From contig CBDEFM010000002.1 of NCBI GenBank assembly GCA_965237415.1, forward strand, positions 96,001 through 160,000: DNA of 64,000 nucleotides, written 5' to 3'. Below the pieces are notes generated by a model that saw only the letters and a program-made list of their open reading frames with translations, was not told the DNA's origin and did not search any database. The translations under genes and the position numbers were made by a program. This DNA is from Alphaproteobacteria bacterium. Lineage in GTDB: Bacteria > Pseudomonadota > Alphaproteobacteria > UBA828. Position 1 is the stretch's first letter. Each line of letters begins with the position of its first letter. Shown piece after piece: positions 2,626 to 6,361 of this stretch.

Positions 2626-2779
2626 TGTCGATGACGGTCCAAAAGTGCGCCTATTCGCTGCATTCAGCACGTGAGTGCGGTGACGATGTAGCAGCTTGTT
2701 TGGCGGGTGGAAGCGTGCCTCGTCGGAGCTGTGGATAGGCGGCTTGTCGCAGCGACCGCCCTCGTCTATGGACGCCCCC

Positions 2780-3036
2780 GGTAATGCAAGCTTTTCTTTG
2801 AACGGCACGGTGCATGCGGTCAGGTGCTGTCGTCTATCCGGCCTGTTGATGCGGCATTTCGATCGCCGCTGGCCCGTATGGAGATACGCGAACCGGGTCC
2901 AAAATCGAGTCTGCGAGCTTGAACGCTCTCAGGACGGTGCTGGTTTTCCCGATCCGGTCTCATTGACCGTATGCCCTCCTTACCTGTCCTCCGACCTGCC
3001 CACATCCCCGACGGCTTCCCGCGATTGTCCGCCCTG
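2780..3036 (-). ncRNA. putative bridge/seek RNA of the IS1111 element
   Basis: ~260-bp non-coding end downstream of the recombinase, containing segments that match target flank (2905-2913, 2931-2938) and donor junction (2830-2837); boundaries approximate. Confidence 0.7.
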
Positions 3037-4062
3037 TCAGGCGGTTGCGGGAACCCGATAGATCTCCTTCTTCGCCGTCACCGCCCAGGCGACGCGCGCC
3101 ATTTTGTTGGCCAGCGCAACCGCGACGAGCATCTTCGGCTTGCGCGCCAGCATTTCGGCCAGCCAAGGATCCCTCGTCTCGCCACCACGGCGCTCCGCCG
3201 CTTGGATTACAGACATGGCACCCGTGATCAAGAGCCGCCTGAGATCGCGCTGGCCCATCTTCGATACCTTGCCAAGCCTTGGCTTGCCGCCAGTCGTATG
3301 CTGTCGCGGCACGAGGCCTAGCCAGGCGGCGAAGTCGCGCCCGCGCCTGAAGCTCTCCATCGGTGGGGCGAAAGCCTGTACTGCCATGGCCGTGATCGGC
3401 CCGATGCCCGGGATCGTCATGAGCCGTGCCGCCTCTTCGTCCTGGCGTGCGCAAACGCGGAGCTCCTTCTCCAAATCGTAGATCTTCGCATCGAGGTCTG
3501 AGACCTGACCGAGCAGTAGGTCACCCAGCTCGCGAACCGGCTCCGGTAGCCCCGAGCTCGGATCCATGAGTGCCGCCTCCAGCCGCTTGACATGAGCTGG
3601 CCCCTGTGGAGCGATGACGCCGAACTCCGCCAGGTGACCCCGTAGCGCGTTAATCGTCTGCGTGCGCTGGCGCACCAGGAGGTCGCGTGTGCGGAACAGC
3701 ATCCCTCGAGCCTGCTGCTCTTCCGTCTTCACGGCCACCAAGCTCATGGTGGGGCGCTGCGCGGCCTCGCAAGTCGCCTCCGCGTCCCTCGCGTCATTTT
3801 TCTGCCGTTTGACGAATGGCTTGACATATATCGGTGGGATTAGCTTGACCTCGTGTCCGAGCATCTCGGTCTCTCTACCCCAATAGTGAGCGCTCGCGCA
3901 GGCCTCCATCGCCACCACGCAGGGCGGTTGCGAGGCGAGGAAGTCGAGTAGCTTGCCCCGGCTCAGCTTCTTGCGGAACACAACGGACCCGTCTGCCCGC
4001 GCACCATGCAACTGAAAGCTGTGCTTCGCCAGATCGATCCCGATGATGCTAGCCTGATCCAT
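3037..4062 (-). CDS. IS110/IS1111 DEDD recombinase (transposase)
   Basis: IGIDLAK, AMEACA, QKNDARDAEA, IPGIGPITA, WLGLVPRQHTTGGK, VAVALANKMAR; GGAGG-type RBS upstream. Confidence 0.95.
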   Translation of the reverse strand: MDQASIIGIDLAKHSFQLHGARADGSVVFRKKLSRGKLLDFLASQPPCVVAMEACASAHYWGRETEMLGHEVKLIPPIYVKPFVKRQKNDARDAEATCEAAQRPTMSLVAVKTEEQQARGMLFRTRDLLVRQRTQTINALRGHLAEFGVIAPQGPAHVKRLEAALMDPSSGLPEPVRELGDLLLGQVSDLDAKIYDLEKELRVCARQDEEAARLMTIPGIGPITAMAVQAFAPPMESFRRGRDFAAWLGLVPRQHTTGGKPRLGKVSKMGQRDLRRLLITGAMSVIQAAERRGGETRDPWLAEMLARKPKMLVAVALANKMARVAWAVTAKKEIYRVPATA

Positions 4063-4407
4063 GGAGGCCTCCTCCCTCAGGTGGTTCGACACCACCACCT
4101 TGGCACGATTCGCTGCCGTCGGGAGGGGGCGTCCACTCCCTCGAGTCTGGCAAGGCAAGCCGGCTATCCACAGCGGGCAGGCGTCGCGATTCCGGTGGCG
4201 GCGGGCGAACTGGCGGCAGCCCCTCGGACCTGAACAGCAAGATCGGTAGGGCTACACTCGGGCCGCTGAGAACGATGCGGCGCCGGCCACGTCTGCTTGG
4301 TGGCAAGAGCCGGCGCCGCACCCCCCGAGCCATGCTCGGCACGGCCCAGATGCACAGTATCGTGCGGGTTTTGGCGGGGGTCGAGCCCGTTCTCATCGAC
4401 CGCCGCG

Positions 4408-4854
4408 ATGAGGAACTTCGGCCGCCTGTTCAACTGCGCCCACTGCGATCGGCAGGTGGTTCTCTGCCCGCGCTGCGACCACGGCAACATGTACTGCTCA
4501 GCGGACTGCCGCGAGACGGCGCGCAGGCAGGCGCAGCGTCTTTGCGGGCAGCGCTATCAGGACAGCCTCCAGGGTCGTCGCAAGCACGCGCAGCGGCAGC
4601 AGCGCTATCGCGATCGGCACCGGCGTCGGGTGCCGGAGAATGAGGTCTGCGCGCAGAAAGTGACGCATCACCCTTTGACCCGCGGGCACCGTCGTCCTGT
4701 TGTGCCACAGACGCCGATGACGCGTCGCGGGACACAACCCTTTGGGCACGGGCGGCCTGCCAGGGTCTTCCGCTGCCATCGCTGCGGCCGGTTCTGCGCG
4801 CAGTTTGTCCATCCGGGCCTGCGCCCGGTCCGGCATCCGGCACGAGAAGGGTGA
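4408..4854 (+). CDS. Cys-rich, basic putative zinc-binding protein (IS21 passenger)
   Basis: CAHC-x6-CPRC-x6-CSADC plus C-terminal CHRCGRFC; stop 1 bp before istA ATG. Confidence 0.7.
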   Translation: MRNFGRLFNCAHCDRQVVLCPRCDHGNMYCSADCRETARRQAQRLCGQRYQDSLQGRRKHAQRQQRYRDRHRRRVPENEVCAQKVTHHPLTRGHRRPVVPQTPMTRRGTQPFGHGRPARVFRCHRCGRFCAQFVHPGLRPVRHPAREG

Positions 4855-4855
4855 G

Positions 4856-6361
4856 ATGACCATCGACAAGAAGACGCGCGCGGAGATCCTGCGCCTCCAT
4901 TACGCCGAGAAGTGGAAGATCGGCACGATCGCAAACCAACTCGGCGTCCATCACATCACGGTCCGCCGCGTTCTGGCCGACGACGGGGTGCCTCGGCATA
5001 TGAGGCGGCACCGGCGCTCGAAGCTCGATCCCTTCATGCCCTTCATCCGCCAGACACTGGCTCACTATCCGAAGCTGACCGCCAGCCGGCTCTACGAGAT
5101 GGCGTGCGAGCGCGGCTACCAGGGGAGCCAGAGCCACTTCCGCAACATGATCGCCCCCGAGCGGCCGAAGCCTGTGGCCGAGGCCTATCTGCGTCTCAAG
5201 ACCCTTCCCGGCGAGCAGGCCCAGGTCGATTGGGGACACTTCGGCAAAGTGAAGCTCGGTCGCGCGGAGCGCCCGCTGATGGGCTTCGTGATGGTTCTGA
5301 GCTTCTCGCGACGCATCTTCCTGCGCTTCTACCTCAACGCCGCGATGAGCAACTTCCTGCGTGGCCATATCGACGCCTTCGAGGCGTGGCAGGGCGTGCC
5401 CCGCGAGCTCTGGTACGACAACCTGAAGAGCGTCGTGCTGGAGCGCCGCGGCGACGCCATCCGCTTCAATCCCCAGTTCCTCGACTTCGCCGGCCACTAC
5501 CGTTTCCTGGCACAGCCCGTCGCGATCGCGCGCGGCAATGAGAAGGGGCGCGTGGAACGGGCGATACGCTACGCTCGCGACAGCTTCTTCGCCGCTCGCT
5601 CATGGCGCGATATCGACGACCTCAACGCCCAGGCCCAGGCCTGGTGCGATGGCATCGCCGCCGAGCGGCCCTGGCCCGAAGACCACTCCATCAGCGTGCG
5701 CGAGGCCTTCGAGCGGGAACGCAGCTCTCTCATTGCGCTGCCCGGCGATCGCTTCCCCGCCGACGAACGGGTCGAGGCCTCCATCGGCAAGACCCCTTAC
5801 GTCAGATTCGACCTCAACGACTACAGCGTGCCGCACACCCATGTGAGCCGCACTCTCGTCGTCCTCGCGACCCTCGACGAGGTGCGCATCCTCGACGGCG
5901 CGGACGTCATCGCCACCCATCCACGCAGCTTCGACAAGGCAGAGCGTGTCGAAAACCCCGACCACATCGCCGGCCTGGTCAGGCACAAGCGTCATGCCCG
6001 GCGCCTTCGCGGGCAGGATCGGCTGGTCCAGGCCGCGCCCAACAGCGAGCGCCTGCTCACCGACGCCGCCAAGCGCGGCAGCAATCTCGGCACCATCGTC
6101 GCCGCCCTACTGCGCCTCCTCGACGGGTACGGCGCCGCCGAGCTCGAGGCGGGCATCGACGAGGCCCTGAAGCGCGGCGTCCCCCATCCGAACGCCGTGC
6201 GCCTGAGCCTGGCCCGGCGGCGCGAACTGCGAGACGAGCCCCCGCCCATCCCCGTCGACCTGCCCAAGCATCCACGCCTGCGCGATATCGCGGTGCGCGA
6301 CCACGATCTCGGCGGATACGACGGACTGGCCGGTGGGCCCGAAGAGGACAGCGAAGAATGA
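4856..6361 (+). CDS. istA: IS21-family transposase IstA
   Basis: N-terminal HTH; [28 protein letters not shown] motifs. Confidence 0.95.

Follow-up and report, generated by a model that had tools for sequence, protein, structure and literature searches.

RNA-guided transposition is already described for the IS1111 group of insertion sequences. In four of its members, the non-coding region downstream of the transposase gene yields an RNA that co-purifies with the transposase, is essential and can be reprogrammed (Siddiquee 2024, PMC11187229). The same report gives a short (70−100 nt) and a long (145−170 nt) form of this seekRNA in the family, with the complement of the target top strand located 5′ of the bottom-strand complement. 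For 93.0% of IS1111 elements, Durrant 2024 (PMC11208160) predicted a right-end bridge RNA, and by hand complementarity to both target and donor was found in three IS1111 elements. Here, we analyse an element at positions 2763−4141 of a 64 000-nucleotide stretch of an alphaproteobacterial genome (contig CBDEFM010000002.1; the whole stretch is called the window), which an initial annotation had read as an IS1111-type element with guides matching its own target and donor. We consider it highly probable that this is an IS1111-group element whose 272-nt 3′ non-coding end encodes a seekRNA/bridge RNA of approximately 150 nt that would guide both target and donor recognition. As IS1111 seekRNAs and bridge RNAs were published in 2024, the window element adds another member.

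Judged from the published description, the element resembles ISEc11, ISPa11, ISKpn4 and ISPst6 (PMC11187229) in the length and motif of its DEDD protein, its subterminal repeats and its long downstream non-coding region, whereas its guides and target differ. It shares with the IS1111 seekRNA elements the order of the target matches (top-strand complement 5′), and its 66-nt target arm and 153-nt conserved core lie near the reported short and long RNA forms. Its target matches overlap by 1 nt only (position +1), while those of many of its relatives overlap over the 2-nt core. Likeness to IS621 (PMC11208160; structures 8wt6 and related) extends to a single RNA with strands for both target and both donor strands, predicted exchange at a 2-nt core and a recombinase with the same two domains. 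The window element departs from IS621 in five respects. The IS621 RNA comes from the left end, upstream of its gene, and the predicted window RNA from the right end, 3′ of the transposase gene. The two target strands follow each other in the opposite order, and CG or TG replaces CT as the core. In the window copy, the core is reached by just the 3′ strand of each pair, and the donor strands are placed in a three-way junction instead of a second internal loop.

The element and its empty site

The element has the following parts, given in window positions.

2763−4141, minus strand: IS1111-group insertion sequence, 1379 bp including one copy of the core CG (from the junction reading)
3037−4062, minus strand: transposase gene, 341 aa (from Pfam, NCBIfam and alignment)
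4125−4135, unstranded: left subterminal inverted repeat, 11 bp, 6 nt from the core, reverse complement of 2769−2779
2769−2779, unstranded: right subterminal inverted repeat, 11 bp, 4 nt from the core
2751−2762, unstranded: target half by the right end (right target in element sense; from the junctions and the L121 empty site)
4144−4155, unstranded: target half by the left end (left target in element sense; from the junctions and the L121 empty site)

The plus-strand junctions read ACCGCCCT-CG-TCTATGG (CG at 2763−2764) and CCACTCCCT-CG-AGTCTGG (CG at 4142−4143), and their CG dinucleotides (2763 and 4142) are spaced 1379 bp apart. Because CCCTCG stands at both junctions (2759−2764 and 4138−4143), the element ends are ambiguous within 6 nt, and the crossover was put at the CG by comparison with relatives. 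An empty-site homologue in another genome of the same class, L121, matches at 88% over 423 nt and has the sequence ...GCAGCGACCGTCATCG|AGTCTGGCAAGG...; with 1379 bp taken out of the window, the two are colinear and show zero length difference. The initial annotation had proposed that removing the element reconstructs the target and that circularising it gives the donor. The uninterrupted homologue bears out the reconstruction, and the target and donor strings put forward do follow from the two junctions.

The transposase carries the Pfam domains PF01548 (E = 3.3e-15) and PF02371 (E = 4.2e-23) and scores 320.9 bits (cut-off 140) against NCBIfam NF033542, ‘IS110 family RNA-guided transposase’. 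Its relatives with solved structures are the transposases of ISCro4 and IS621, the latter sharing both domains (E = 1.2e-10). In an alignment of 12 proteins (the window protein and 11 relatives), the DEDD residues D10, E53, D90 and D93 are invariant, as are G249, L250, P252 and G258 of a GLxPxxxxTG motif at 249−258, in which T257 is at least 90% conserved. IS1111 transposases are described as DEDD proteins of 330−350 aa with a GL-P----S/T-G motif (Siddiquee 2024, PMC11187229). The window protein combines DEDD residues and both IS110 domains with a GL-P----S(t)G motif and a length of 341 aa; the element has a subterminal repeat within 7−17 bp, the target-match order of the group and its arrangement of non-coding DNA, with 79 nt upstream of the transposase gene and 272 nt downstream. 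By these sequence features, the element at 2763−4141 is assigned to the IS110 family, IS1111 group.

Relatives were sought in genome contigs by a protein-based scan: of 575 candidate stretches, 530 proved to be relatives, and 80 loci with 56−84% identity were kept. Together with the window and two diverged paralogues from its own genome (L005 and L006, with 78% and 76% DNA identity to the window element), these make 83 sequences. The subterminal repeat pair stood at the right spacing in 60 of the 83 in a first pass, and it covaries on both sides in relatives (GGATGCCCC with GGGGCATCC). After refinement, 59 sequences gave both end motifs at the right spacing; nine further loci, retrieved by searching 49 genomes of the order, brought the total to 68. 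The junction core is CG or TG and is identical at both junctions in 53 of the 59 relatives.

Guide strands, RNA fold and covariation with flanks

Four minus-strand segments in the non-coding end are at issue: ACCGTCCT (2938−2931), CAGACTCGA (2913−2905), CTCCAT (2883−2878) and ATAGACGA (2837−2830). Written as RNA, and with the structural parts in which they lie, they are as follows.

2817−2969, minus strand: conserved RNA core, 153 nt, from the 5′ arm (2969−2965) to the 3′ arm (2821−2817) of helix P1 (from alignment A1)
2890−2955, minus strand: target-binding arm, 66 nt, with lower stem, internal loop and upper hairpin
2931−2938, minus strand: target-loop 5′ strand ACCGUCCU, pairing with the element-sense top strand at right flank +1 to +8 (AGGGCGGT) with one G:U
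2905−2913, minus strand: target-loop 3′ strand CAGACUCGA, equal to left flank −6 to −1 plus core CG plus A
2878−2883, minus strand: donor 5′ strand CUCCAU, complementary to the family left end ATGGAG
2840−2874, minus strand: conserved stem-loop between the donor strands (GGCC/GGCC and GCGGC/GCCGC)
2830−2837, minus strand: donor 3′ strand AUAGACGA, equal to the last 5 nt of the right end plus core CG plus A

As CAGACUCGA has the same sequence as the left flank and core, it pairs with the bottom strand, with an anchored run of 8 in the window. ACCGUCCU has no pairing with the core: in the window copy the core CG is covered by CAGACUCGA and AUAGACGA only, since ACCGUCCU is followed by GA and CUCCAU by AC. 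Chance matching was gauged with 2000 dinucleotide-preserving shuffles of a 247-nt non-coding end. The 9-nt same-sense target run was reached in 64 shuffles and the 8-nt same-sense donor run in 193, and both were reached jointly in four. With G:U allowed, ACCGUCCU pairs at 8 of 8 positions on its own right flank and at no more than 6 on the right flanks of 61 other elements. From the single locus, the guides thus have moderate support, and the question is decided by the relatives.

The fold was derived from alignment A1, which holds 58 distinct non-coding ends. RNAalifold predicts the target arm and a second arm, to which the long-range helix P1 (CGGUC with GACCG) was added from the window's own fold. 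In the target arm, the lower stem joins 2955−2948 with 2897−2890 and 2943−2940 with 2901−2899, and the 4-bp upper hairpin joins 2928−2925 with 2918−2915; these helices (2−4) are 97−99% paired, with two-sided changes at nine of their 15 pairs. Helices 5 and 6, which form the arm between the donor strands, are 99% paired with two pairs changing on both sides, and one pair of P1 (40/209) changes from GC to AU in 10 sequences. Over the whole model of 29 pairs, 96.7% of the 1677 cells are paired, compared with at most 44.5% when the partners are slid, and 13 of the 29 pairs change on both sides; these values were reached in none of 500 shuffles. A single-sequence fold of 2817−2969 in the window shows the same three arms. 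With compensatory changes in the helices around them, the target strands form opposite sides of a genuine internal loop. For the donor strands the model gives no second internal loop: they lie where P1 meets the target arm and the second arm, in a three-way junction.

For covariation, 64 of the 68 loci had both flanks complete, giving 62 distinct guide-plus-flank combinations and 48 guide sets. Loop and donor strands were taken for each locus from alignment columns, as a pattern-based extraction of the loop strands failed in 47 of the 68. The target-loop 3′ strand, compared with the left flank plus core, has a mean anchored run of 6.02 (median 7) at its cognate site and 1.91 over 3744 non-cognate pairs. 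For the target-loop 5′ strand against core plus right flank, the longest exact run averages 6.21 for cognate and 3.10 for non-cognate combinations, with 4 in the window; allowing G:U, the corresponding values are 7.10, 4.25 and 8, and a run of 8 is reached by 1.7% of the 3744 non-cognate pairs. The same guides recur at different loci with the same site motif, in L005 and L019 and again in L011−L017 and L064. A 2-nt register shift of the window's target-loop 5′ strand was considered and dismissed: L039, L058, L062, L063, L091 and L094 have the same register, which therefore varies within the family.

Of the donor strands, the 3′ strand is identical to the final 5 nt of the right end together with the core in 14 of 20 distinct guide/right-end combinations and varies at three positions. 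The 5′ strand is nearly constant, with one clear covariation (ATCGCCAT with a left end ATGGCG, in three loci); it is otherwise invariant in its first 4 nt, and several relatives are mismatched at left-end positions 5 and 6. As a guide, the donor 5′ strand is weakly supported, and it is mismatched in the window copy.

Most of what the initial annotation had said of the RNA stands. All four segments read at the coordinates it gave, and its C/T difference in the first segment, taken there as a wobble, is a true rU:dG; at the corresponding position (left-half position 5), L121 has the guide's T where the window has C. The segments are not buried in stems, as all four lie in strands between helices with compensatory changes, and guides do covary with flanks across the combinations described above. 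Of the two internal loops that its proposed check asked about, the model has one, for the target strands, and puts the donor strands in the three-way junction. CTCCAT was correctly positioned against the left donor and complements the family left end, though not without an A:G mismatch in the window copy.

Two further observations concern the target strands. At column 112 of alignment A1 (window 2905), nearly all relatives have core plus A at the end of the 3′ target strand, regardless of the first base of the right flank. The left end starts with the same base as this terminal A, so the 3′ target strand fits the post-insertion junction better than the naive target. Separately, L011−L017 and L064 insert at GGCGTCCAAAAT-TG-ACCCC, a site whose left half resembles an IS1111 subterminal repeat; from this likeness, they may target the ends of related elements.

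An IS21 host and the insertion target

The element sits inside another mobile element.

2626−7384, plus strand: IS21-family host element, with IstA at 4742−6361 and IstB at 6361−7167 (Pfam PF22483, PF00665 and PF01695)

The insertion target is the loop of an 18-bp inverted repeat, approximately 135 bp inside the IS21 left end; the two arms of the repeat, which differ by one mismatch, now bracket the insertion at 2718−2735 and 4157−4174. IS4321 and IS5075, of the IS1111 family, reportedly target the terminal repeats of Tn21-family transposons. The window element is like them in having a fixed target in the end of another mobile element, which in its case is this IS21 hairpin loop and not a Tn21-family terminal repeat. 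Look-alike uninterrupted hairpin sites, near sequence resembling insertion sequence (IS) ends, number at least six in the window's own genome and are also present in four others of the class. The own genome contains no uninterrupted exact target, and its look-alikes, at 84−85%, differ at the core.

The repeat common to the other genomic copies spans 2622−7392, well beyond the limits of the IS1111-group element, and in three full copies and a truncated one the flanks agree as far as the IS21 ends. The target duplications of the IS21 host are CCCGCG (6 bp) in the window and CGCGCAG at C2:1800655−1805427, and a paralogous site at C2:634180−634240 is empty. As the duplications differ between the two sites, the IS21 composite moved as a unit. 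We therefore rejected the other copies as independent insertions: their common site results from movement of the IS21 host together with its passenger, so they provide no independent test of targeting. The proposal that other genomic copies would sit in similar sites holds in that none was found in an unrelated one, but the likeness was acquired through IS21 copying. Two exact-pattern scans of metagenome contigs for the same element gave no hits.

A 5′-truncated relative in the same genome (L008, C2:1562026−1562359) retains the right end and the RNA region in full, preceded by approximately 50 nt from the 3′ end of the transposase gene; no transposase similarity was found in the 1.8 kb upstream of it. 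Within the IS21 element, upstream of IstA, a 185-aa CxxC-rich frame at 4297−4854 has no Pfam match and is approximately 80% conserved in a related IS21 copy (C2:3085073−3085951). Immediately left of the IS21 element, the product of the gene at 2297−2674 has allophanate hydrolase C-terminal and GGACT domains; paralogous flanks at C2:633872−634297 and on C1 have the uninterrupted arrangement.

Competing explanations and the state of this copy

Several observations weigh against a guiding RNA in this element, or at least against the strength of the case for it. The element is known from its DNA sequence. By exact run, the two antisense segments are at chance level (reached in 1449 and 1958 of the 2000 shuffles), the 5′ target strand lacks the core pairing that all four IS621 guides have (PMC11208160), and the window left end AGGGAG opposes CUCCAU with an A:G mismatch that no wobble relieves. 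Six of the 20 donor 3′ combinations differ from the right end plus core, four of them solely through a right junction of CA rather than CG. The whole non-coding end folds no better than its shuffles (z = −1.29), and no Rfam family matches 2400−4500 at E up to 1. When the whole end is folded singly, the loop strands partly pair together, with a mean unpaired probability of 0.44−0.82 (0.41 overall), and a single-sequence fold therefore cannot settle the loops. The counts leave out 24 of the 83 sequences (short contigs, truncated copies and diverged motifs), and the left-end filter let in only ends starting ATG or AGG; in an unfiltered pass, other left-end letters came solely from mis-paired motif hits in L055 and L076. 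Finally, no independent insertion with these guides was found in 48 other genomes of the order, where the best match to the non-coding end outside the own genome was 85%.

The left end also bears on whether this copy could move. At position +2 (window 4140, element sense), the window departs from the other 67 loci, reading AGGG where they read ATGG; the change both creates the mismatch with CUCCAU and changes the hexamer lying across the circle junction. Of 52 distinct junctions, 51 have AT as the last two letters of this hexamer, and in the window it reads GACGAG. The IS1111 circle junction carries a promoter (PMC11187229), and the right end has a candidate −35 element for it.

2784−2789, minus strand: TTGCAT, a −35-like hexamer pointing out of the right end (TTGCNN in 47 of 52 distinct junctions)

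TTGCNN sits 17 nt before the junction-spanning hexamer in 40 of the 52. The left-end change would probably weaken this junction promoter. A promoter and terminator scan of 2600−4300 found none. The transposase reading frame and the RNA scaffold are intact in the window copy. No contig from public runs joins across the element or shows the circle junction. Contigs from an RNA-library run are difference-free over 2983−3131 and 3639−3818, but DNA carry-over is possible, so they are uninformative on expression, and a contig over 2938−3022 belongs to a relative. The initial annotation had called this a complete RNA-guided recombinase system with a readable programme. That description is supported in that all parts are present, which is all that ‘complete’ means for a sequence-based reading and does not imply activity; its weak point is the donor 5′ strand, mismatched here.

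A serious alternative, although we do not favour it, accepts that the guide programme can be read but sees in the window a crippled passenger, unable to transpose itself and persisting as IS21 cargo. The shared flanks of the three full copies and the truncated one, with differing IS21 target duplications, are as it would predict; the AGGG left end, with its mismatch to CUCCAU and its altered hexamer, would supply the defect, and no second site turned up in the 48 other genomes of the order or the metagenome contigs. Set against this, the reading frame is open with all invariant residues kept, the RNA scaffold is undamaged, relatives tolerate mismatches at left-end positions 5 and 6, and the effect of the hexamer change is itself inferred. 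Furthermore, as no exact uninterrupted target remains in the own genome, a lack of new insertions is expected either way.

It is unlikely that guiding is confined to the target arm, with the donor-like matches unused and the protein finding the ends by their subterminal repeats. The short 82-nt seekRNA of ISEc11 alone gave transposition at 42% (PMC11187229), which fits such an arrangement, as does a donor 5′ strand that hardly varies and is mismatched in several relatives. Yet the donor 3′ strand tracks the right end at its three variable positions, exactly so in 14 of the 20 combinations, P1 and the arm between the donor strands are conserved with compensatory changes, and donor complementarity is reported for the IS1111 members inspected by hand (Durrant 2024, PMC11208160). 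We give almost no credence to the view that the matches are protein-bound DNA repeats or chance, with no RNA involved. AUAGACGA is indeed a direct DNA repeat of the right end, and two of the four segments do not rise above chance within the single sequence, but the compensatory base-pair changes show a folded RNA, the loop strands change with the flanks in 48 guide sets, and shuffling rarely reproduced both same-sense runs jointly.

The reading we prefer is therefore an IS1111-group element with an RNA that serves both target and donor. Its RNA would fold into three arms joined by the long-range helix. In the internal loop of the target arm, the 3′ strand CAGACUCGA would pair with the target's bottom strand; the donor strands would flank the second arm, AUAGACGA repeating the right end and core and CUCCAU complementing the first 6 nt of the left end. 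From the work on ISEc11 and IS621, the excised circle would join right end, CG and left end, and the RNA–protein complex would align this donor with the target, with strands exchanged at the CG. A single insertion into the inverted-repeat loop of the IS21 left end would then have been followed by IS21 copying its passenger to at least three more places. A fuller account is tentative and, taken as a whole, rather doubtful: the donor strands in the three-way junction, with P1 clamping both arms into a core of approximately 150 nt, may be an architecture distinct from that of IS621, and the element, programmed against the IS21 hairpin loop, may be spreading as cargo despite a left-end change that breaks donor pairing and the junction promoter.

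The known mechanism is left unchanged by these results. What the locus offers is a guide programme of the IS1111 kind that can be read from raw sequence and then checked against relatives, in a group of recombinases that is less studied than IS621. The 68 relatives, with 48 natural guide sets on one conserved scaffold, amount to a table of natural reprogramming, and the nesting in IS21 exemplifies a mobile element that targets another and then travels with it.

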